Shown: positions 28,276-40,774 of the stretch, piece by piece | Position numbering within the stretch: position 1 is the first letter of the stretch | Layout of the letters: the number at the start of each line of letters is the position of its first letter | From: Flavobacteriales bacterium | Lineage (GTDB): Bacteria > Bacteroidota > Bacteroidia > Flavobacteriales > Weeksellaceae | Length of the DNA: 64,000 nucleotides | Reading direction: 5' to 3' | Assembly (NCBI GenBank): GCA_020635515.1 | Contig: JACJZS010000002.1 | Coordinates: 1,162,273 to 1,226,272, forward strand | Translations under genes and position numbers: made by a program | The notes under the pieces: generated by a model | Told to the model about the DNA's origin: nothing | Databases searched by the model: none | The model's input: the letters and a program-made list of their open reading frames with translations, nothing else

Positions 28276-28923
28276 TTATCTTTTCTCTAAATTTTCAATT
28301 CGTTTTTCCAGCTCAAATAATTTAGAATAGTACTTGTTATCTTTTGTAGTACTGAGATGTGTCACTACGGAATAAACATTACCTTCACTTATTTTAAAAG
28401 TTTTATTTGTTTTTATCAGTGTTAAGTTTTCTTCTTTTACGCTAATTTTATCTATAAATATAAATCCATTTAAATTAACTATATATTCCCTTGAATCAAG
28501 AGTATTTTCATTCAGATTTAATTTAATAAGTAATAATAAATCTCCTTTTTGATAGAAATCTTGCGGGTTATCTAAAATTATAAAATGATTAAAAAATGTT
28601 TTTAGTTTTTCAGCTTGAACTTCATAGATAATACCATCTTTTTTTTCTAATTCTAGATTTTGAAGTAATTTACTTTGAATTACTTTTTCTGCTTCAGTAT
28701 AGTTGGCGATTTGATTTACAGTTAGTTTCTTTTTCAATAAATCATCAGTAGATAGTTCAAAATGATCCGATATGCGTAATAACGTCTCTATTTTCGGTTC
28801 AGCTCTTCCTTCCTCATACGAACTCACTACTCCTCTATTTAAATTAACCAATTCTCCAAACTGAGTTTGACTTAATCCCTTTAACTGCCTGATTTTTTTA
28901 ATATTTGTGCCAAAATACGACAT
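28276..28923 (-). CDS. XRE-family helix-turn-helix transcriptional regulator with a LexA/S24-like (apparently non-catalytic) C-terminal beta domain
   Basis: The HTH is IKKIRQLKGLSQTQFGELVNLNRGVVSSYEEGRAEP. The C-terminal ~120 aa have an S24-like strand pattern (GDLLLLI, NGFIFIDKI, VYSVVTHL) but no obvious Ser-Lys dyad. The start is taken at the internal Met (28923); the track start at 28977 adds a hydrophobic extension. Confidence 0.6.
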   Translation of the reverse strand: MSYFGTNIKKIRQLKGLSQTQFGELVNLNRGVVSSYEEGRAEPKIETLLRISDHFELSTDDLLKKKLTVNQIANYTEAEKVIQSKLLQNLELEKKDGIIYEVQAEKLKTFFNHFIILDNPQDFYQKGDLLLLIKLNLNENTLDSREYIVNLNGFIFIDKISVKEENLTLIKTNKTFKISEGNVYSVVTHLSTTKDNKYYSKLFELEKRIENLEKR

Positions 28924-28935
28924 AATGCAAAATGT

Positions 28936-29002
28936 ATTTGCAAATATACAGAAATAAATTGTTAATTTTATTTGCATTTATGATTTTTAACTGTATATTT
29001 GC
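28936..29002. promoter_or_regulatory. Candidate operator/promoter elements in the divergent regulator / psp-like operon intergenic region
   Basis: A perfect 10-bp palindrome ATTTGCAAAT (28936-28945). A 12-bp inverted repeat gcaaatatacag (28940-28951) / ctgtatatttgc (28991-29002). Further TTTGCAT half-sites at about 28971 and 29112. Confidence 0.25.
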
Positions 29003-29147
29003 TAATATAATTATCAATAAACTCGATTATCGTTTAAAAACAACCGATTAAATGAAAATCATACCGAATATAAAAATCAGATTATTTATATAAAATAAAA
29101 AACATTAATTTGCATTAAATATTCAAGATAAATAAACACATAATAAT

Positions 29148-29540
29148 ATGAAAAAAAAGAACCTTATAAAAGAGCTATTATTAGAACTAGAATATACAAT
29201 TACGCATCAAACTGACGATTTATCTGTATTTGTGATTGATAAAGAAGTAGATGGAATCAAAAATTTGGTAATTGCTTATTCCGAACCAATTCTTATCATA
29301 GAGCAGTTCTTATTCGAGATAAAAAATGAATCTCTCTTTATGTATAAAAATTTACTTAAAAAGAACAGAGATATTGTGCATGGAGCTTTTGTATTAGATG
29401 ATTCGGGAACTAAAGTGATTTTTAGAGACACCTTACAAACCGAAAATTTAGATAAAAATGAACTAGAAGCAAGTTTGAATTCTCTAAGTCTTTTACTAAG
29501 CGAATACTCAAAAGAAATTGTAGAATTTTCAAAAAATTAA
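29148..29540 (+). CDS. YbjN-fold / YjfI-like (DUF2170-like) small cytoplasmic protein, first gene of the psp-like operon
   Basis: 130 aa. It has the size and motif pattern of YbjN-type domains (hydrophobic core PILIIEQFLFEI, then LLKKNRDIVHGAFVLDDSGTKVIFRDTL, then an acidic helical tail). Only 30 bp separate it from pspA. The assignment is by pattern recognition only. Confidence 0.35.
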   Translation: MKKKNLIKELLLELEYTITHQTDDLSVFVIDKEVDGIKNLVIAYSEPILIIEQFLFEIKNESLFMYKNLLKKNRDIVHGAFVLDDSGTKVIFRDTLQTENLDKNELEASLNSLSLLLSEYSKEIVEFSKN

Positions 29541-29570
29541 AAATAGATTAACTAAAAAATTAAAAATACC

Positions 29571-30272
29571 ATGAACATATTTAAACGATTATTCAGAATA
29601 GGTGAAGCACAAGTTCATTCCACTATAGATAAACTTGAAGATCCAATCGCTATGACCGAACAAGGAATACGCGAAATGAAAGAGCAATTAGATAAAGCGA
29701 TTCAAGCATTAGCCGAAATAAAAGCTCTTGCCATTAGAAAGAAAAATGAAGTAGAATCCTCAAAAAATCAAGCAGATGAATACCAAAACAAAGCTATGAT
29801 TATACTAAAGCGTTCTTCAGAAGGAGAAATACCTCAAGAAGACGCAGATAGATTAGCTTCGGAAGCGATTAAAAAGAAAAATCAAGCACTAAATAATAGT
29901 AAAATTGCCACTCAAGCACAAGAAAAATATGAAACTGATGTTGCAAAAATGCAAAAAAACATCAATGAATTAAAAGCTGATATCTCTAAGTGGGAAGGAG
30001 AATTAAAAACATTAAAAGCAAGAGTAAAAGTATCGGAAGCAACAAAAAACATAAACAAAAGCATGGCGGCGATTGATTCTAACTCTACAGTTTCATTACT
30101 TGAAAGAATGAAAGAAAAAGTGGAAGAACAAGAATCATTAGCCGAAGCATACGGAGAAATTGTGGATTCATCAAAGAGCATAGATGAGGAAATTGACAGT
30201 TATACCAATCAAGAAGATATGCAAGTAGCATCTGAACTAGAAAAATTAAAAAACCAATTAAATAGACAATAA
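29571..30272 (+). CDS. pspA: PspA/IM30 family protein (phage-shock protein A / Vipp1-like, bacterial ESCRT-III)
   Basis: 233 aa. It opens with MNIFKRLFRIGEAQVHSTIDKLEDPIAMTEQGIREMKEQL, the canonical PspA N-terminus, and continues as a long coiled coil. Confidence 0.9.
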   Translation: MNIFKRLFRIGEAQVHSTIDKLEDPIAMTEQGIREMKEQLDKAIQALAEIKALAIRKKNEVESSKNQADEYQNKAMIILKRSSEGEIPQEDADRLASEAIKKKNQALNNSKIATQAQEKYETDVAKMQKNINELKADISKWEGELKTLKARVKVSEATKNINKSMAAIDSNSTVSLLERMKEKVEEQESLAEAYGEIVDSSKSIDEEIDSYTNQEDMQVASELEKLKNQLNRQ

Positions 30273-30275
30273 AAA

Positions 30276-30935
30276 ATGAATATAGAAGAGTTGATTTCTA
30301 TTTCCTTTTCTCCTGTAAATACAGTACTTACGATTTTCCTTATTTTAAGCGTTATCTACTGGTTATTTACAATTATATCGGGAATGGATATAGATTTGGG
30401 TATTGATTTTGATGCAGATATAGATGTTGATACCGATTTTGAGCATCCAGACTCTACTGTTGAAGTACCTCAAGACCCTTCTATGTTTATTCAATTTTTA
30501 AAATTTCTTAACCTAGATGTTATTCCTATCACATTTTTCATAACACTTACAATTCTATTTTCTTGGTTAATTTCGGTCAATTTAAATTACTATTTTCCAA
30601 TTCCAAATTGGTTAGGATTCCTTTTACTAATTCCCATATTTTTTGCAAGTATTACCGTAACTAAATTTGTCACTTTTCCTTTAAAAGGTATTTTTAAAAA
30701 CTTAAATCATCAAGGAGAAAAGACATATGATTTTTTAGGAAGAACAGGAAAACTAAAAGCAACTATACAAGAAAATAAGCTAGGAACAATGGAACTTTAT
30801 ATTCAAGGTGATCCTATAAAAATTTTAGTAAAAAGCAAAGACGGAATTAAACTAGAAGAAAATAGTTCTGTGGTTGTGGTGAACGAAAATCCAGACAAGA
30901 AATTTTACATCGTAGAACAAGATTATCAATTATAA
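30276..30935 (+). CDS. YqiJ-like inner-membrane protein with a C-terminal NfeD-type OB-fold (DUF1449-like)
   Basis: Acidic DxD-rich periplasmic loop, then TM helices, then a C-terminal beta-barrel GRTGKLKATIQENKLGTMELYIQGDPIKILVKS...VVVVNEN typical of NfeD partners of SPFH proteins. It starts 3 bp after the pspA stop. Confidence 0.75.
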   Translation: MNIEELISISFSPVNTVLTIFLILSVIYWLFTIISGMDIDLGIDFDADIDVDTDFEHPDSTVEVPQDPSMFIQFLKFLNLDVIPITFFITLTILFSWLISVNLNYYFPIPNWLGFLLLIPIFFASITVTKFVTFPLKGIFKNLNHQGEKTYDFLGRTGKLKATIQENKLGTMELYIQGDPIKILVKSKDGIKLEENSSVVVVNENPDKKFYIVEQDYQL

Positions 30936-30953
30936 AATTATTTATTTAACATT

Positions 30954-33047
30954 ATGAACATATCATTTATTATTACAGTTGCGGTAATTGCGATTGTAGC
31001 TTTAGGTCTTATTTTTTGGATTCTTTCCATGTATAAAAAGACAACTCAAGGTATCGTAATTGTGCGTACTGGATACGGAGGGACAAAAGTATTCTTTAAC
31101 GCAGGAATTGTAATTCCAATTATTCACAGAATGGAACTGATGGATATTTCCGTGAAAAAGTTAGAAATTGAAAGAGAAGCAAAAGACGGATTAATCTGCA
31201 AAGATAATATGCGTGCAGACATACAAGTTGCTTTTTTTATCCGAGTTAACAAATCTGCAGGAGACATTATTAATGTTGCTCAAACCATTGGTTGCAGTCG
31301 TGCTTCGGATATTGAAACATTACGTCAGCTTTTTGAAGCTAAATTTTCAGAAGCATTAAAAACCGTAGGTAAAAAGTTTGAATTTATAGAACTTTACGAA
31401 GCAAGAAGTGAATTTAGAAACGAAATTCTAAACATTATAGGTACAGATTTAAATGGTTACGTACTAGATGATTGTGCTATTGATTACCTAGAGCAAACTT
31501 CATTGCAATACCTAAATAAAGACAATATTCTCGATTCCGAAGGTATCAAAAAAATAACAGAACTAACTGCTGAACAGAATGTTAAAGCAAACTTTGTTCG
31601 TAGAGAAGAAGAAAAAACCATAAAAAAACAAAACGTAGAAGCTCGTGAAGCAATTCTTGAATTAGAAAAACAATTGGTAGAGAAAGAAGAATCCCAAAGA
31701 AGAGAAGTAGAAAACATTAAATCCAAGGAAAATGCTACTATTTTAAAGGTTCAAGAAGAAGAACGTTTAAAATATGAAACGGTACGAATTGCTACCGAAG
31801 AGCAACTTGCTATTGCAGAAGAAAATAAGTTACGCCAAGTTGTTATTGCTTCTAAAAATAAAGAACGTGCAGAGCTAGTAGAAACCGAAAGAGTAGAAAA
31901 AGACAGAGCATTAGAACAAACCGAAAGAGAAAGAATTGTTGCTCTTGCAGATATAGAAAAAGAAAAAGCGGTAGAGGTAGAAAAGAAAAACATTCAAGAT
32001 GTAATTCGAGATAGAGTTGCAATGGAAAAAACTGTAGTACAAGAAGAACAAAACAAACTCGACATAGAAGCATTTAAAACTGCAGATAGAAAGAAACAAG
32101 TAGAAATCACTCTTGCTCAACAAGAAGCAGAAAAAAGATTAATTCAAGAAATTAAAGCTGCCGAAGCGAGAAAACTTGCCGCAGAAAAAGATGCAGAAAA
32201 ATACGTTATCGAAGCACAAGCCAAAAGAGATGCTGCAGAAAAAGAAGCAAATGCAAGAATCATAATTGCCGAAGCTCAATCAAAAGAAGAAGCAGTTGTT
32301 GGCCTTTCAGAAGCTCAAGTAATGCATGCAAAAGCCGATGCATCAGAAAGACAAGGTATTGTAGAAGCTAGTATAATTGAGAAAAAAGCAAAAGCGGAAG
32401 CTGTAGGAATCAAAGAAAAAGCATCTGCAAAAAAAGACGATGGTCTTGCAGAAGCACTTGTGATTCAAGAAAAACTAACAGCACAAGCGACAGGAGAAAA
32501 AGAAAAAGCTCTTGCCGAAGCTGCTGGAATTACAGAAAAAGCGGAAGCAATGAAAAAACTAAACGAAGCAGGAAGAGAACACGAAGAGTTTAGACTGAAA
32601 CTTGCCAAAGAAAAAGAAGTAGAGCTTGCTCATATAAATATTCAAAAAGATATTGCACAAGCACAAGCTAGCGTTCTTGCCGAAGCATTTAAAACTGCTG
32701 ATATAGACATTGTTGGTGGAGATAATACATTCTTCGAAAATGTAATCAAACAAATTTCTGCAGGACAAGGAATAGACAAATTCATTAAACATTCCGAAAA
32801 TGCACAAATTATTAAAGAATCTTTATTAAGCGATGATTCTAGTGACAATATAATTGGTAAAGTTTTAAACCTTGTAGATAAATATAATGTTTCCTCAGAA
32901 GACATCAAGAACCTAACCATTTCCAGTTTGATTTTTAAACTCAATGGAATGGTAGAAACTTCTTCCGAAAAAGGAATCCTAAACCAAGCACTTGATTTTG
33001 CTAAACAATTAGGCGTTGAAAACAAACCAATTAGCAAAGTAAAATAA
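30954..33047 (+). CDS. Flotillin family (SPFH/band-7) protein, YqiK/FloT-like, with an expanded Ala/Glu/Lys-rich coiled coil
   Basis: N-terminal TM helix, then an SPFH domain (IVRTGYGGTKVFFNAGIVIPIIHRMELMDISVKKLEIEREAKDGLICKDNMRADIQVAFFIRV), then a ~350-aa low-complexity EA-repeat coiled coil and a flotillin C-terminal domain. Confidence 0.9.
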   Translation: MNISFIITVAVIAIVALGLIFWILSMYKKTTQGIVIVRTGYGGTKVFFNAGIVIPIIHRMELMDISVKKLEIEREAKDGLICKDNMRADIQVAFFIRVNKSAGDIINVAQTIGCSRASDIETLRQLFEAKFSEALKTVGKKFEFIELYEARSEFRNEILNIIGTDLNGYVLDDCAIDYLEQTSLQYLNKDNILDSEGIKKITELTAEQNVKANFVRREEEKTIKKQNVEAREAILELEKQLVEKEESQRREVENIKSKENATILKVQEEERLKYETVRIATEEQLAIAEENKLRQVVIASKNKERAELVETERVEKDRALEQTERERIVALADIEKEKAVEVEKKNIQDVIRDRVAMEKTVVQEEQNKLDIEAFKTADRKKQVEITLAQQEAEKRLIQEIKAAEARKLAAEKDAEKYVIEAQAKRDAAEKEANARIIIAEAQSKEEAVVGLSEAQVMHAKADASERQGIVEASIIEKKAKAEAVGIKEKASAKKDDGLAEALVIQEKLTAQATGEKEKALAEAAGITEKAEAMKKLNEAGREHEEFRLKLAKEKEVELAHINIQKDIAQAQASVLAEAFKTADIDIVGGDNTFFENVIKQISAGQGIDKFIKHSENAQIIKESLLSDDSSDNIIGKVLNLVDKYNVSSEDIKNLTISSLIFKLNGMVETSSEKGILNQALDFAKQLGVENKPISKVK

Positions 33048-33063
33048 GATTTGATGTATAAGT

Positions 33064-33103
33064 TTAAGAAGTTAAGTTTTAGATAAATAACTTAACTTCT
33101 TAA
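33064..33103 (+). terminator. Perfect 15-bp-stem hairpin 17 bp after the flotillin stop; candidate terminator or attenuator without a strong U-tract
   Basis: ttaagaagttaagtt - ttagataaat - aacttaacttcttaa. Confidence 0.4.
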
Positions 33104-33116
33104 TTATGAGTAAGTA

Positions 33117-33326
33117 ATGTTTTCAATAATTATAAATATATTTTCTATTTCTATTGTGTTTTTTTGTATTCTAAAATGCATTAAATATGATAAAATTATC
33201 AAAAAAAAAATAAACAATATTTTACTAACCTATGAAGAAAGTAAAGTATATCAAAAGCTTAAAAGCTATTTTCTATATGCATTTATTACATTACTAATTT
33301 TACAATTTTTAGGCTTAATTCTGTGA
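33117..33326 (+). CDS. Small two-TM ORF in the 378-bp AT-rich spacer between the flotillin and giant ATPase genes; may be spurious
   Basis: 69 aa with two hydrophobic helices, in a very AT-rich region that favours chance ORFs. Confidence 0.2.
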   Translation: MFSIIINIFSISIVFFCILKCIKYDKIIKKKINNILLTYEESKVYQKLKSYFLYAFITLLILQFLGLIL

Positions 33327-33425
33327 TTATTTATCTCATTAGAAAAATAAAATTTGTAAAAATGCATTCATTTAAAGACAAGAATTAAATATAATTCATC
33401 ATTAATAATTTATAATTAACAATTA

Positions 33426-36400
33426 ATGTCCGAAGAGTCACAAAACAATCAAGTTTCCAAGGAAACGTACGAAATCATAAAAACTCGTCTTAATAAGCAA
33501 AAAGACGATCTAATTCTGCGTTTAAAAAAGTTAAACGAAAATAGAAATGAAGTTTTTGGAAACAAAGAGTTTAGTTTAATTGCAAACGAAAGAATCTCCA
33601 CAGAACAAGCATGCAAACCAAAGGATATTTTTTCCATTGAAAATCATGTAATCCTCGGATACAACGTGCATCTAGGTTTAAAAAATGAAATTGATATTTC
33701 CGATATTTTTTCTGTTTATTCTTTTGAGAACAATACGTTTGAACCATCTCATCTTAACTTCTTGTCTGATGCAAATTTTATAGACGAAATAAAAAACCTG
33801 TATAAATACTACCGAAATACCAATTTTAAACGTTTTTACTCTACCGAAAATTATCTTTATTTCGTATTTCAACTTTCGGAATCTGTATCGGATATCAAAG
33901 CATTTAAATTTCTAATTGAAAAAGAACAAATTACTTATATTGACTCTCGTTCGGCATCAGAAGTTACTTTCCCTCAACAACACAGTTTTAAATGGGAAAA
34001 AGCCACACGCGACATGCAAAAAACGGGAAAATTTCCTCACGTTTCTCTTGCAAATAAAGTTTTTGTAGAGGCAATTGACGGAGATATTACCATAAAAGTG
34101 GAAGATAACACCGACTCTGGTCTTGGAATCTATTCGGAAGAAGTACAGCACAAAGATCAATCGTTAGACGATGCCGAAATTCATTTTTGTGATTTAGGTA
34201 ATTTAGTTATTTTCAAGATAAAACCGTATCGAGAAGAAGAGCGATATTTTATTTATAATCACAAAGAAAAAAAGGTTTTTAAAGTTGATTCTTTGGAAAA
34301 TTCTGGTATTCTTTTGCCAGAAAATCAAGGAATCATATTTCCAAACGGATACATTCTGCAAAATGGAGAATCGAAAGTAATACATCAAGAAAACCAAGAT
34401 ATTCGTTTTTTGAAACGTATTGCTAGTTCAAATGGAGAAAACTTTCTCTTCGTATACTACAACATTACCTCATCAGATTATTTAATTCTTCCTTACAGCA
34501 TCATTTCTCAAACCATAGATACTCCTATTAGCTGTACGGGTTTTTCTATATTTGATGATGGAACTTTAATTTATTTAAAAGCTAATGAAGAAACAACTAA
34601 AAACCATTTGGTACAACTTTGGGAAACACCTTTTTCCAAGGAAATTAAAATTAACAAGGAACTTGAAAATAATCTTTTGTTTAAAATTGGCAATAAAGAT
34701 TTGGTTCGTCTTCTCGCTGATTGCAACGAATTAATTACATTATTAGAAAAAGAAGATTCTTACTCAGGATTATACAACGATATTGTAACAGAATCTACCG
34801 ACATTTTAGATGCGTATTATTTTTTAAATGAAGAAAAAGTAGGAGAAATTCAAATTCCGTTACTTGAAATTCGAAAAATTGCTCATTCTGCAATAAATGA
34901 ATACGAGAAAGTAGTTGAAATTCGAAAAAATACAAAACAAAAAGTATCCGAAGTTCAAGAAAAATGTGAGAATATTCTTCAAACTACCAAACATTTAGAA
35001 TACAATACTCTTACAGAATACATAGATAATCTTTCTGAACTAAGGAAAATCGTTGGAGAAATTATTTCTGCTCGAAACCTTTCTTATGTAGATATTTCAC
35101 TATTAGACGAACTAGAAAATAAAATTAAAGAACGTTCCGAAGAGCTTTCAGGTGCATGTGTTAAATTTTTACTTCAAGATAACGCTTTAACTCCTTACGA
35201 AGAAAAAGCAAATAATCTATCCCAAAAGATTGAGAATTTAACAAAAGCTATACAGAAAAAAGAAATTGAATCCGAACTCGATGAACTCGCTTTCCAATTG
35301 GAGCTTTTAGTTGATGTTGTAAATAATTTAAAAATAGAAGATACTTCTCAATCAACTGAAATTATTCAAAATATTTCTGTAATCTTTTCACGAATCAATA
35401 CAGAGAGAATAGAACTCAACAAAAAGGTAAAAGAAGTTTCTTCTAAAGAATTATCTGCTGACTTTCAAGCTCAAATTACACTTTTCGACCAATCTGTAGT
35501 CAACTTTATGGAGCTTGCAAATACTCCAGAAAAATGCGATGAATACCTTACCAAATTATCTTTAAGTTTAGAAGAACTAGAAACCAAATTTGTAGATTTT
35601 GAGGAATTTATTGAGGAAATAGCAGAAAAACGAGAAAATGTATACAATCATTTTCAAGCAAAAAAAGTTCAACTCAACGAACAAAGAAATAAAAGAACCA
35701 ACACTTTGTTTTCTTCTGCCAAAAGAATTCTAAATGGAATAAAAAACAAAGCAGAAAACTTTAAATCAGAAACTGAAATCAATGGTTTTTTTGCTTCGGA
35801 TTTAATGGTAAATAAAGTAATTGACTTTTCTAATCAACTGTTAGAATTAGAAGATTCTGCAAAATCGGAAGAAATTCTCACGTTGCTCAAAACAACGCAA
35901 CAAGAAGTAATAAGGAAACTAAAAGATAAAAACGAACTTTTTAAAGACGGAGATAATATTATTTCTTTTGGCGAATACAAATTTGCAATCAATACTCAAA
36001 AGTTAGATTTATCTCTTGTTTTAAGAGAAAATCAATACTATTTTCATCTAACAGGAACTAGCTTTTACGAAAAAATTAAAGATGAATCCATTTATCATTT
36101 AAAAGAAGTTTGGAATCAAGAATATAAATCCGAAAACAAATCAGTTAAGCATTTCGAATACTTAGCTTTTCAAATCTTCTCTAAGAACAAAGAGCTAAAT
36201 AATGTCGATAAAAACACTTCTCTCATACAAGAGTATATGTCCTCTAACTATTCCGAAGGATATGTAAAAGGAATACACGATTCAGATGCTTTGCAATTAA
36301 CAAATGTTTTACAGCATCTTCATAATGAACTGGGAATTCTAAAGTTTAATCCAAAAGAACGAGCATTAGCTCAGCTTTTTTGGAATCAACAATCCAGCGA

Positions 36401-38249
36401 ATATAAAGAGCTTTTAGAAAAGCAATTCAGTGCAATTCAGTTGGTAAATGAAACCTTGAATAGCAATGCAACATTTGATTATATTGTTGATGAGGTAGCT
36501 GAAAAAATTGCGGAATTTTCTATCGAATTTCAAGAATTTAAAAATACAAATCTAAATAACTCTGTAAGTTACTTAATCAAAGAAAATAGAAATGAATTTA
36601 CAATTTCTAAAACTGCATCGGATTTTTACCTCTCATTTCTAAAATACTTAAAAAATAAAACAAAAGATATTGACTTCTTAAATAAAATTGAAAACTTAAA
36701 AAATCATGTAGAAGAATGTTTTTCGATTATTTATAGTTCGTTGAAAAGTTATGCTGAAATCGAAAATTATTCCATAGAAGAATCGTATTTAGTAGAAGTT
36801 GCGGTACTTTACTTATTGAATAATTATCATGAAAATCAAGTGCTAAATGTTCCAACTCAAATCGAACTGAAAGAACTAAAGTCTCTTGAAAGCAATCAAA
36901 TATACAAGCTAGATTATCATCAATTTACTCGAAAACTCGATTTATACACACATGAAATTGTTCCGAAGTTCGATGAGTTAAAAAAGCTAAAACATCAATT
37001 GGTAGTTGAGAAAAAAAATCAATTAAAAATTGATAGCTTCCAGTCAAATGTATTGAGCTCATTTGTAAGAAACAAACTTATCAACCAGGTATATTTTCCT
37101 CTTATTGGAGCAAATCTATCCAAACAATTAGGAACAGTAGGCGAAAATAAACGCACAGATAAAATGGGAATGTTGCTTTTAGTTTCTCCTCCAGGATACG
37201 GAAAAACTACACTTATGGAATACCTCGCCAATCGACTTGGGTTAATTTTTATGAAAATAAATGCTCCATCAATAGGACATTCCATTACTTCTGTAGATCC
37301 TTCTCAGGCAGATAATTCTGCTGCTAAACAGGAGTTAGAAAAATTAAATCTTGCTTTTGAGATGGGAGATAATGTAATGTTGTATTTAGATGACATTCAG
37401 CATTGTAATCCTGAGTTTTTACAAAAATTCATTTCTCTTGCAGACGGACAAAGAAAGATAGAAGGTATTTACAACGGAGAGTCAAAAACCTATGATTTAC
37501 GTTCCAAAAGATTTTGTTTGGTAATGGCAGGAAATCCATATACAGAAAGTGGAGAAAAATTCAAAATACCAGATATGCTTTCCAATCGTGCAGATATCTA
37601 CAATTTAGGAGATATTGCAGGTAATAAACGAGATTTATTCGATTTAAGTCTTATAGAGAATGCGTTAATGTCTAATGTGTACCTTAGAAAACTAACGGAA
37701 TTATCATTAGAAAATCTGTATAGTTTACTCAGTTTAATTCAAAACCCAAATAGTTCTAGTAAAATTAAAGGTAACTTTTCTAATCAAGAAATAGAAGATT
37801 TTAAATCTGTGTTGTTAAAGTCAATTCAAATTAGAAATACGGTAATAAAAGTAAATGAATTGTACATAAAATCTTCTGCGATGAGCGACGACTATCGTAA
37901 AGAACCAGTATTTAAACTGCAAGGTTCATACAGAGATATGAATAAACTGTTAAGTAAAGTGCAACCGATACAAAATGAAAGTGAAATTACAGATATTGTA
38001 TTAGAGCATTATCAGAATGAAAGTCAAACACTTACTATCGATGCAGAAGCAAATCTACTTAAACTTCGTGAATTGATGAATCTTCTATCTAATGAAGAAA
38101 AAAGCAGATGGGAGGAAATAAAAACTACTTTCCAAAAAAATCAAAAGTTTAAATCACTAGGAGATAATGATAGAATGAGTCAGATAGTTGCCTTGCTTTC
38201 TGAGTTTTCTGACGGTTTAAATGGAATCAAAGATGTTTTAAAAAAGTAG
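33426..38249 (+). CDS. Giant (1607 aa) protein: N-terminal ~400-aa beta-rich domain, a long helical/coiled-coil middle, and a C-terminal AAA_5-type (MoxR/McrB/dynein-like) ATPase module
   Basis: Walker A LLLVSPPGYGKTT (about nt 37186-37212). Walker B plus sensor region MLYLDDIQHCNPEFLQKFISLAD. Sensor-1/Arg region LVMAGNPYTESGEKFKIPDMLSNRADIYNL. This collinear pattern matches AAA_5 ATPases (LLDEINRA-NPEV...; ..TMNP.....L..AL.NRF). The ORF is uninterrupted, with no frameshifts. Confidence 0.85.
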   Translation: MSEESQNNQVSKETYEIIKTRLNKQKDDLILRLKKLNENRNEVFGNKEFSLIANERISTEQACKPKDIFSIENHVILGYNVHLGLKNEIDISDIFSVYSFENNTFEPSHLNFLSDANFIDEIKNLYKYYRNTNFKRFYSTENYLYFVFQLSESVSDIKAFKFLIEKEQITYIDSRSASEVTFPQQHSFKWEKATRDMQKTGKFPHVSLANKVFVEAIDGDITIKVEDNTDSGLGIYSEEVQHKDQSLDDAEIHFCDLGNLVIFKIKPYREEERYFIYNHKEKKVFKVDSLENSGILLPENQGIIFPNGYILQNGESKVIHQENQDIRFLKRIASSNGENFLFVYYNITSSDYLILPYSIISQTIDTPISCTGFSIFDDGTLIYLKANEETTKNHLVQLWETPFSKEIKINKELENNLLFKIGNKDLVRLLADCNELITLLEKEDSYSGLYNDIVTESTDILDAYYFLNEEKVGEIQIPLLEIRKIAHSAINEYEKVVEIRKNTKQKVSEVQEKCENILQTTKHLEYNTLTEYIDNLSELRKIVGEIISARNLSYVDISLLDELENKIKERSEELSGACVKFLLQDNALTPYEEKANNLSQKIENLTKAIQKKEIESELDELAFQLELLVDVVNNLKIEDTSQSTEIIQNISVIFSRINTERIELNKKVKEVSSKELSADFQAQITLFDQSVVNFMELANTPEKCDEYLTKLSLSLEELETKFVDFEEFIEEIAEKRENVYNHFQAKKVQLNEQRNKRTNTLFSSAKRILNGIKNKAENFKSETEINGFFASDLMVNKVIDFSNQLLELEDSAKSEEILTLLKTTQQEVIRKLKDKNELFKDGDNIISFGEYKFAINTQKLDLSLVLRENQYYFHLTGTSFYEKIKDESIYHLKEVWNQEYKSENKSVKHFEYLAFQIFSKNKELNNVDKNTSLIQEYMSSNYSEGYVKGIHDSDALQLTNVLQHLHNELGILKFNPKERALAQLFWNQQSSEYKELLEKQFSAIQLVNETLNSNATFDYIVDEVAEKIAEFSIEFQEFKNTNLNNSVSYLIKENRNEFTISKTASDFYLSFLKYLKNKTKDIDFLNKIENLKNHVEECFSIIYSSLKSYAEIENYSIEESYLVEVAVLYLLNNYHENQVLNVPTQIELKELKSLESNQIYKLDYHQFTRKLDLYTHEIVPKFDELKKLKHQLVVEKKNQLKIDSFQSNVLSSFVRNKLINQVYFPLIGANLSKQLGTVGENKRTDKMGMLLLVSPPGYGKTTLMEYLANRLGLIFMKINAPSIGHSITSVDPSQADNSAAKQELEKLNLAFEMGDNVMLYLDDIQHCNPEFLQKFISLADGQRKIEGIYNGESKTYDLRSKRFCLVMAGNPYTESGEKFKIPDMLSNRADIYNLGDIAGNKRDLFDLSLIENALMSNVYLRKLTELSLENLYSLLSLIQNPNSSSKIKGNFSNQEIEDFKSVLLKSIQIRNTVIKVNELYIKSSAMSDDYRKEPVFKLQGSYRDMNKLLSKVQPIQNESEITDIVLEHYQNESQTLTIDAEANLLKLRELMNLLSNEEKSRWEEIKTTFQKNQKFKSLGDNDRMSQIVALLSEFSDGLNGIKDVLKK

Positions 38250-39769: not shown

Positions 39770-40774
39770 ATGGAAATAAAAGAGTATAATACACTTTTTG
39801 TAGATATAAAGCAAAAAATACAGAACGCTCAAATAAAGGCTATTGTTGCTGTAAATACCGAATTAATTATACTTTATTGGAATATAGGAAATAGTATTTT
39901 AAAACAACAACAAAGCCTAGGATGGTCAGCTAGCGTTATTCCTCTTTTATCAAAAGATTTAAAAAAATCATTCCCTAAAATTAAAGGGTATTCGGAAAGG
40001 AATTTAAGTTATATGCTTCGTTTTGCTAAGGAATATAATGATGAGGTATTTTTGCAACAGACTGTTGCAAAAATACCTTGGGGGCATAATATTTTACTTA
40101 TTGAAAAATTAAAAAATATTAAAATACGAAAATGGTATATTCAAAAATGCATAGAAAACAACTGGAGTAGAGATGTATTAGATTTTCAAATTAAATCTAA
40201 CTTATATAAAAGGGAAGGAAGTTCAATTAATAATTTTAAGAATACTTTGCCTAAACCTTTTTCTGATTTAGCAAACCAAACATTAAAAGATCCTTATATT
40301 TTTGATTTTCTTTCATTAGATGAAAAAATTAGAGAAAAAGATATAGAACGACAATTAATTGAACATATCAGTAAATTTTTATTAGAACTTGGTAAAGGGT
40401 TTGCTTATATAGGAAATCAATATCATTTAAAAATAGCAGAAAATGATTATTATTTAGATTTACTTTTTTATCATACTAAATTAAAATGTTATGTCGTAAT
40501 TGAATTAAAAAACACAAAATTTATTCCAGAGTTTGCGGGGAAATTAAACTTTTATTTATCTGCTGTTGATACCCTGATAAAAGATGAATCTGATAATCCT
40601 ACTATTGGTATTCTGTTATGTAAAGATAAAAATAATATAGAGGCTGAATTTGCCTTAAGAGATTTAAATAAACCAATGGGTATAAGTGAATTGAAATTAA
40701 TAGAAAACTTACCTGAAGACCTTAAAAGTAGCTTGCCTACTATTGATGAAATTGAAAAAGAATTCAAGAAATAA
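39770..40774 (+). CDS. PDDEXK-nuclease domain protein, DUF1016 / YhcG family
   Basis: The N-terminal YhcG-like region, the WSRDVL motif and a C-terminal restriction-endonuclease-like core (D...ELK). This family is frequently found in accessory contexts. Confidence 0.8.
   Translation: MEIKEYNTLFVDIKQKIQNAQIKAIVAVNTELIILYWNIGNSILKQQQSLGWSASVIPLLSKDLKKSFPKIKGYSERNLSYMLRFAKEYNDEVFLQQTVAKIPWGHNILLIEKLKNIKIRKWYIQKCIENNWSRDVLDFQIKSNLYKREGSSINNFKNTLPKPFSDLANQTLKDPYIFDFLSLDEKIREKDIERQLIEHISKFLLELGKGFAYIGNQYHLKIAENDYYLDLLFYHTKLKCYVVIELKNTKFIPEFAGKLNFYLSAVDTLIKDESDNPTIGILLCKDKNNIEAEFALRDLNKPMGISELKLIENLPEDLKSSLPTIDEIEKEFKK

Follow-up and report, generated by a model that had tools for sequence, protein, structure and literature searches.

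The closest described relative of the locus in this report is an operon class defined computationally by Popp et al. (mSystems 2024; PMC11237479, section 19 and Table S3), who list the exact six-gene layout with Dokdonia donghaensis as the exemplar (ANH61663.1) and with a divergent regulator given as “cHTH+Protease.” They proposed ATP-dependent membrane remodelling for the operon, drew a parallel with Vps4-like activity, and noted the wider occurrence of shorter flotillin/YqiJ(/ATPase) operons, with the ATPase present only “in some cases.” The locus examined here is a flotillin-ATPase gene cluster in a 64,000-nucleotide (nt) stretch of a Flavobacteriales genome (assembly GCA_020635515.1, contig JACJZS010000002.1, positions 1,162,273 to 1,226,272), which we refer to in its full length as the window. 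It consists of a divergently oriented regulator gene followed by genes for a CesT/Tir-like protein, a PspA/IM30 protein, a YqiJ-like membrane protein, a flotillin-like scaffold, and a giant ATPase.

All six genes, their order, and their orientation agree with those of the D. donghaensis operon, which comes from the same phylum and a related family, and we found no difference of substance between the two. The features that mark the published class are all there: adjacent CesT/Tir-like and PspA genes, a YqiJ-type protein with three transmembrane (TM) segments, a flotillin-like protein with a TM segment and a Band_7 domain, an AAA+ ATPase, and a cHTH regulator. As a Bacteroidota member of that class the locus is ordinary, and it is not a new system; in presenting it as a candidate uncharacterised system, the original prediction, which was made from the sequence alone, had been anticipated, the proposal of remodelling included. 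What the window offers is one more clean instance of an operon for which remodelling is already a published prediction, together with several refinements: an Asp-Asp Walker B motif and a missing pore-loop motif in the ATPase, a lost catalytic dyad in the regulator, a recurrent hairpin past the flotillin gene, quantified linkage, and a coupling centred on flotillin.

Parts of the arrangement are familiar from other systems. In Escherichia coli yqiJ-yqiK and Bacillus subtilis yuaF-floT, the gene for a three-TM protein of the NfeD/YqiJ type likewise stands directly upstream of that for a flotillin made up of a TM segment, an SPFH domain, and a coiled coil, although the window proteins are too diverged to score directly with the Pfam Flot or YqiJ_N models. 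To our knowledge, neither of these pairs is accompanied by a giant ATPase. The B. subtilis pspA-ydjGHI operon likewise encodes an SPFH protein together with a PspA/ESCRT-III homologue, and experiments have shown PspA to depend on that SPFH protein, YdjI, for its recruitment to the membrane (PMC8581546), so the analogy that the original prediction drew with this operon is a real one. It differs from the window locus in its other partners (YdjG and YdjH in place of the CesT-like and YqiJ-like proteins), in lacking an AAA+ ATPase, and in the subfamily of its SPFH protein.

Cage-forming flotillins are the subject of PMC11260169, and the HflK/C-FtsH complex (PMC13220708), an SPFH cage around an AAA+ protease in the inner membrane, provides a precedent for pairing the two kinds of protein. 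FtsH, however, is a membrane-anchored classical AAA protease, whereas the window ATPase appears to be soluble and has no protease domain, a diverged core, and a Walker B motif with two aspartates. Vps4/CdvC offers another parallel, in that an AAA+ gene adjoins a gene of the ESCRT-III superfamily; unlike these proteins, the window ATPase has no MIT domain, pore-loop motif, or Walker B glutamate, and its linkage to PspA is restricted to one lineage. Our literature searches returned no experimental study of the ATPase, no paper on DUF3686 (the Pfam family of its N-terminal part), and none on a “DNA repair ATPase” (its database name) with flotillin; a survey of SPFH proteins in Pseudomonas aeruginosa does not mention such an ATPase.

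The central observation concerns the genes that accompany the ATPase in other genomes. Twelve homologues of the giant protein were aligned for the locus search, and 80 loci were drawn from a one-genome-per-species collection, in which six-frame open reading frames (ORFs) were searched with each window protein; iterative rounds of the homologue search with hidden Markov models added no matches beyond the first round of phmmer. Linkage was counted in the 63 loci with at least 6.5 kb of upstream sequence. In 59 of the 63, which as best matches to a Flavobacteriales query do not amount to a global census, genes for a YqiJ-like protein and a flotillin lie in that order directly upstream of the ATPase gene and on the same strand. 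Counted singly, a YqiJ-like gene is present in 59 loci and a flotillin gene in 60; one locus has a flotillin gene and no detectable YqiJ-like gene. The linked triad spans at least seven phyla, with representatives in Bacteroidota, Planctomycetota, Verrucomicrobiota, Desulfobacterota, Clostridia, Kiritimatiellota, and Omnitrophota.

PspA has a narrower distribution. It accompanies the ATPase in 31/63 loci, all of them in Bacteroidota, and the same restriction applies to the CesT-PspA pair (30 loci) and to the full layout of divergent regulator, CesT, PspA, YqiJ-like protein, flotillin, and ATPase (30 loci). Since the triad occurs in every sampled phylum and PspA in Bacteroidota only, the constant companions of the ATPase are flotillin and YqiJ, not PspA. 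Clustering of this kind, seen across phyla in nearly all loci counted, is far beyond chance, and the system is a three-gene core (YqiJ-like protein, flotillin, and ATPase) with a three-gene Bacteroidota extension (regulator, CesT, and PspA). The expectation that the locus represents a conserved multi-gene membrane-scaffold system with an ATPase tightly linked to flotillin was borne out by these counts, as was co-occurrence of the giant ATPase with flotillin in general and with PspA in Bacteroidota alone.

An unbiased all-against-all clustering of ORFs from the related loci identified as recurrent neighbours only the flotillin, YqiJ-like, HTH, PspA, and CesT families, and miaB, yhcG, a gene for a TPR protein, and a 69-amino-acid (aa) ORF, all present in the window, were linked to the cluster in none of the 80 loci. 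The other recurrent ORF clusters were antisense shadows within the flotillin and ATPase genes. Long antisense ORFs occur in the region that encodes the flotillin coiled coil (in the window at 32642-33037 and 31484-32123, both on the minus strand), with ORFs at matching positions in 61 loci; we considered them as genes and rejected them as shadow ORFs arising from the repetitive, E/K/A-rich coding strand. The coordinates of the features of the window locus are given in the table below. All of the ORFs named in the original prediction were present where it had placed them. The intergenic gaps from CesT through PspA and YqiJ to flotillin are 30, 3, and 18 bp, so that these genes are tightly packed; the gap between flotillin and the ATPase is 378 bp, and miaB begins 67 bp past the ATPase gene.

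Table. Features of the flotillin-ATPase locus, in window coordinates.
Feature	Coordinates	Strand	Basis or remark
Divergent regulator ORF	28276-28977	-	233 aa as mechanical ORF; 28276-28923, 215 aa, with corrected start
Divergent control region, 224 bp	28924-29147	unstranded	Pattern search and sequence
CesT/Tir-like small chaperone-type protein, 130 aa	29148-29540	+	Pfam
PspA/IM30 (bacterial ESCRT-III superfamily), 233 aa	29571-30272	+	Pfam
YqiJ/YuaF-type (NfeD-like) membrane protein, 219 aa	30276-30935	+	Family-level evidence
Flotillin-like scaffold, 697 aa	30954-33047	+	Band_7 in N-terminal part
Hairpin, perfect 15-bp stem and 10-nt loop	33064-33103	+	17 nt past flotillin stop
69-aa ORF with two TM segments, in AT-rich spacer	33117-33326	+	Probably no gene
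Giant cytoplasmic ATPase, 1607 aa	33426-38249	+	DUF3686, DUF7902, and AAA/AAA_5
Walker A, GYGKTT, aa 1257-1262	37194-37211	+	Invariant in 77/77; translation
Walker B region, Y-L-D-D-I-Q-H-C, aa 1320-1327	37383-37406	+	Alignment of 77 sequences

The explanation that we favour, with a probability of about 0.6, is a core scaffold-ATPase system with a Bacteroidota add-on that would act in membrane remodelling; the physical interactions and the direction of remodelling in it are inferred from the identities of the proteins, their architecture, synteny, motif conservation, and the recurrent hairpin. Flotillin and YqiJ would assemble into a cage-like oligomer or a microdomain along the inner surface of the membrane, the SPFH and coiled-coil parts of flotillin facing the cytoplasm. 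The giant ATPase would dock on this scaffold through its β-propeller, a likely platform for binding partners, and its helical rod; by binding ATP and hydrolysing it slowly, it would assemble, rearrange, or release the scaffold. In Bacteroidota, PspA polymers that the scaffold has recruited would be acted on in the same way, PspA being kept soluble by the CesT-like protein, and the divergent gene would supply a repressor with a LexA-fold sensor domain that lacks the catalytic dyad. The hairpin past the flotillin gene would probably lower expression of the ATPase relative to that of the scaffold. The whole would then serve as an envelope-stress and membrane-maintenance module.

A sharper version of this reading is put forward only tentatively. 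In it, a bacterial SPFH cage and, in Bacteroidota, PspA polymers as well would have in the giant protein the first ATP-driven remodeller, or nucleotide-gated coat, dedicated to them; propeller and rod would dock on the cytoplasmic flotillin/YqiJ assembly, and the Asp-Asp AAA+ module would gate its assembly and release. If it were true, the giant protein would take the functional part of Vps4 for two kinds of membrane scaffold together, without homology to it. Neither flotillin cages nor PspA/ESCRT-III polymers are known to have an ATPase of their own, and an operon that hard-wires a conserved ATPase to the flotillin/NfeD pair across many phyla, with PspA joining among the Bacteroidota, provides an experimental handle.

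The giant protein matches Pfam families DUF3686 at aa 29-465 (E 6e-170), DUF7902 at aa 586-670, and AAA/AAA_5 at aa 1250-1375, the AAA_5 score being 26.7 bits against a cut-off of 22. It begins with a helix (aa 4-44), followed by a β-propeller that corresponds to DUF3686 (about aa 50-400), a helical and coiled-coil rod that includes DUF7902 (about aa 417-836), a helical middle part (about aa 887-1202), a diverged AAA+ core (about aa 1217-1404), and a helical C-terminal region. An AlphaFold2 (AF2) model of aa 1-730, with a predicted local distance difference test (pLDDT) score of 84.8, has a long N-terminal helix, about 30 β-strands between aa 50 and 400, and then long helices. As a family, the module of N-terminal helix and propeller falls into 608 clusters at 50% identity, of which 205 are at E<=1e-30; it sits at the N terminus of proteins mostly 1600 to 2000 aa in length. 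No TM segment was predicted in the giant protein, and the Pfam scan found no protease domain.

The protein is 100% identical to an NCBI entry from a Flavobacteriales metagenome-assembled genome that is annotated as a “DNA repair ATPase,” and it could be supposed that this label is right and that the function is independent of the membrane genes. The NCBI/Pfam names (“DNA repair ATPase” or “ATPase involved in DNA repair”), the nearby regulator with a LexA fold, and weak matches to RuvB in the P-loop would fit such a role. Those RuvB matches are, however, limited to the P-loop; Pfam and NCBIfam scans found no nuclease, helicase, or DNA-binding domain in the giant protein; the regulator has lost its catalytic dyad and so would not be SOS-cleavable; and the synteny with flotillin and YqiJ is strict in at least seven phyla. 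The name finds no support beyond the label itself, and we regard a role in DNA repair as the least probable of the explanations considered.

The nucleotide-binding site of the giant protein is highly conserved. In 77 of 77 sequences from at least seven phyla, the Walker A motif, the sensor-1 Asn, and several Arg residues are invariant, and residues Y1320, D1322, D1323, I1324, Q1325, and H1326 of the Walker B region are equally so; since the ATP-binding residues are invariant in this sample, nucleotide binding appears to be under selection. All 77 sequences carry Asp-Asp in Walker B (D1322-D1323, window 37389-37394) and not the usual Asp-Glu. No pore-loop motif of the aromatic-hydrophobic-Gly type ([YFW][VILMA]G) was found in aa 1265-1320, past the β2 strand. 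When a profile of 44 AAA+ sequences was compared with solved structures, it matched classical AAA proteins (Rix7 and p97/Cdc48) and RuvB, in the P-loop region only. Foldseek with a model of aa 681-1607 gave NorQ/MoxR as the best match (E 6e-3), in the low-confidence part of the model, and none at E<=1e-3. The layout past Walker B resembles MoxR by eye, and no VWA-domain protein of the kind that partners MoxR was among the recurrent neighbours of the ATPase in the related loci. Of the AAA+ module of “MoxR/McrB/dynein type” in the original prediction, the diverged AAA+ module is there, and the type is no more than plausible.

With an AAA+ protein and PspA side by side, a Vps4-like function is an obvious candidate: the ATPase would primarily disassemble PspA/ESCRT-III polymers, and flotillin and YqiJ would be mere anchors. 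This would suit the presence of PspA in the same operon, both in the window and in 31 of the 63 loci, and the similarity of the P-loop region, which is highest to the classical AAA proteins Rix7 and p97/Cdc48; Popp et al. make the same parallel (PMC11237479). It accords poorly with the absence of PspA from the vicinity of the ATPase in about half of the loci, among them every non-Bacteroidota locus sampled, where flotillin and YqiJ are kept. The giant protein itself argues against it as well, with an N terminus made up of a helix and then a propeller and no MIT domain in the Pfam scan, two aspartates in Walker B, no pore-loop motif, and a likeness to classical AAA proteins that is confined to the P-loop. 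We consider a primarily PspA-directed activity unlikely; thus, of the Vps4-like role suggested from the sequence, the general idea of remodelling has its counterpart in print, whereas the part that concerns PspA is weakened.

The same features of the AAA+ core lend themselves to another explanation, in which the giant protein is not a motor but a nucleotide-gated structural element of propeller and rod that polymerises on or around flotillin domains. A switch of this kind would be in keeping with the invariant Asp-Asp of Walker B and the lack of a pore-loop motif, and also with the “DDIQ” sequence of Walker B, which resembles that of the slow switch ATPase DnaA. The long helical rod matched spectrin-like bundles, and Foldseek paired the propeller and helix with clathrin heavy chain, IFT-A, and Nup84-complex proteins, which are suggestive of a coat. 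These coat matches are driven by the generic propeller fold, however, with low TM-scores of 0.08 to 0.21, and the helices are of the coiled-coil and spectrin-like kind and not an α-solenoid. A coat-like scaffold in place of a remodelling ATPase also seems unlikely.

The second member of the core, the flotillin-like protein, is diverged. As a whole, the 697-aa protein matched no Pfam or NCBIfam model, even at E 10; its N-terminal 229 aa, scanned alone, matched Band_7 with E 3.6e-13. Comparison of the protein with the PDB by phmmer gave no match, and a profile of 20 members of the family matched only the SPFH cage protein QmcA (8z5g, E 3.4e-4). The protein has an N-terminal TM segment at aa 1-19 followed by KK, an SPFH/Band_7 domain, a charged coiled coil of about 400 aa, and a C-terminal tail. 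The term flotillin as used here denotes this combination of TM segment, SPFH domain, and long coiled coil, and as such the label is right in substance. A flotillin C-terminal domain was assigned in PMC11237479 by more sensitive profile-profile methods.

Several observations count against the scaffold-ATPase reading. The loci were gathered as best matches to a single Flavobacteriales query, which limits how far their proportions can be generalised, and three of them carry the ATPase with no flotillin or YqiJ gene within at least 7 kb upstream. The Flot model (PF15975) reached E 0.37 on the isolated C-terminal part of the flotillin-like protein, which is not significant, and matched none of 20 homologues. 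In the AF2 model of aa 681-1607 (pLDDT 71.9), the helical rod and middle domain are confident and the AAA+ core has a pLDDT below 50, probably because the alignment is shallow and too conserved. For the clade of the AAA+ core, an assignment to the MoxR/McrB/dynein type is plausible only. Finally, with two aspartates in Walker B and no pore-loop motif, the module appears less likely to be a classical threading unfoldase and may be a switch or scaffold.

The 378-bp spacer before the ATPase gene contains a hairpin that recurs at the same junction in other genomes. Region 33040-33125 folds at -19.2 kcal/mol (z -3.63), and none of 200 shuffled sequences folded as well. In the first 95 nt or fewer past the flotillin stop of 63 related loci across phyla, the median z is -3.48, with 71% of loci below -2; among the controls, 34% fall below -2 past the ATPase stop and 19% within the gene for the ATPase. 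The hairpin is not followed by a T-run and is not a canonical intrinsic terminator. It suggests a candidate intra-operon attenuator or a stabiliser of mRNA 3' ends that sets the ratio of scaffold to ATPase, and it is compatible with either the presence or the absence of an internal promoter before the ATPase. No exact TAnnTTTG -7 box was found in the spacer, and miaB has two just upstream of its start. The view that the ATPase may be independently regulated was taken from its long AT-rich spacer; the recurrent hairpin, in a spacer with no exact -7 box, would speak rather for attenuated read-through and less for a separate promoter.

Between flotillin and the ATPase, the gap in the related loci ranges from 1 to 1667 bp, and its contents differ by locus: unrelated inserts such as IS200-like, DUF559-like, or lipoprotein genes, or nothing. 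Since the junction tolerates insertions, some transcriptional autonomy of the ATPase would fit. A conserved small gene at this position was considered and rejected because the content of the gap varies from locus to locus. The 69-aa ORF of the window spacer, taken earlier as a possible two-TM microprotein, is unsupported as a gene; it matches no family and has no homologue in any of the 80 loci. In five loci, the gap holds ORFs for IS200-like transposase-like, DUF559-like, or PDDEXK-like proteins. In four Bacteroidota loci, it holds one or two genes for tail-anchored proteins of about 80 aa, which in one of these loci lie about 470 to 720 nt past the flotillin stop; these proteins share a conserved “IK(I/V)EP(V/I)SEE...KLKKQR” before a C-terminal TM segment and are unrelated to the 69-aa ORF.

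The divergent regulator has an HTH_3 match (E 2.5e-13), with the XRE-type HTH at aa 8-62 as counted from a corrected start. An alignment of 32 homologues has a conserved start, “MS[FY]FG,” at M19 of the window ORF, from which we take the mechanical ORF to be 18 codons too long and the gene to be probably the shorter one given in the table. Peptidase_S24 is matched by 9 of 14 members of the family (best E 5.3e-10), the window copy itself falling below scoring, and the family profile matches the C-terminal domains of LexA and UmuD. At the level of the family, the regulator is predicted to be an XRE HTH joined to a degenerate C-terminal domain of the LexA/CI (S24-like) fold, so the original description as XRE/LexA-like holds. 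In an alignment to E. coli LexA, the column at the general base Lys156 reads R16/G9/gap7/D1 and is never K, and the Ser119 column is mixed. With the Ser/Lys dyad lost, the protein would not be a self-cleaving repressor of the SOS type, and dimerisation or sensing is the more likely function of the LexA-fold domain.

The regulator gene is kept and divergent in 32/63 loci. Two Chryseobacterium loci retain it in the divergent position with CesT and PspA gone, for which reason it seems to control the flotillin/ATPase core and not to be tied to PspA. The 224-bp divergent region of the window contains two exact -7 motifs of the Bacteroidota type, one in each direction: TATATTTG at 28941-28948 on the minus strand, 18 nt upstream of the corrected regulator start, and TATATTTG at 28994-29001 on the plus strand, upstream of the CesT gene. 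Promoter assignments from these are tentative, since the TAnnTTTG motif is only marginally enriched over the window (127 found against 108 expected, barely above chance). A sigma-70 promoter scan (68 against 61 expected) and an intrinsic-terminator scan (5 against 4.6) were at background and are uninformative for a Bacteroidota genome.

Downstream of the cluster is a gene that invites a different view of it. A PDDEXK nuclease of the YhcG type (DUF1016_N and YhcG_C; 39770-40774, plus strand), at a distance of 1.5 kb and separated from miaB by 4 bp, matches the PADLOC candidate single-gene defence family PDC-S02 with E 1e-147, and the HTH of the regulator resembles those of defence control proteins, in a generic way; both would be in place if the cluster were an anti-phage or abortive-infection system acting through the membrane, a context in which it had been suggested to work. 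Against this, the cluster proteins matched no specific defence model in PADLOC-DB v2, giving only generic HTH and weak P-loop or coiled-coil matches, and a scan of viral contigs found no relatives of the ATPase. YhcG accompanies the cluster in 0/80 related loci, there are no further conserved neighbours, and the composition of the cluster is that of its flanks, with a low G+C content of about 30% throughout the window and no compositional break. The defence idea fares badly on this evidence, and we consider it very unlikely.

The two small proteins of the Bacteroidota extension were readily assigned. The 130-aa protein, thought earlier to be YbjN/YjfI-like, matches CesT_Tir_1 (PF22550) with E 5.1e-50 and YbjN only weakly (1.7e-4), and the former assignment replaces the latter. 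The PspA/IM30 protein matches PF04012 with E 5e-40 (137.8 bits against a cut-off of 33.9) and falls below the NCBIfam equivalog TIGR02977, at 58 bits against 243. By these scores it is classed as a paralogue type of the PspA/IM30 superfamily and not as the E. coli PspA equivalog.

The YqiJ-like protein, like the flotillin, is diverged: as a whole, the 219-aa protein matched no Pfam or NCBIfam model, even at E 10. Among 18 homologues, 8 matched YqiJ_N (4.5e-7) and 2 matched NfeD, and the sole PDB match of the family profile was 2k14, the soluble domain of B. subtilis YuaF, at E 0.089 and at the C-terminal domain, the matching position. The protein has three predicted TM segments, an acidic loop rich in DxD, and a β-rich (OB-like) C-terminal domain. 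The YqiJ label rests on family-level evidence; as with flotillin, the earlier name is right in substance, whereas the whole proteins match nothing in Pfam or NCBIfam. Throughout the family, an alternating DxD acidic loop lies between the first and second TM segments (in the window at 30381-30440, aa 36-55), with a median of six DxD motifs and an acidic fraction of about 0.28 over aa 36-75, and could bind cations or a partner.

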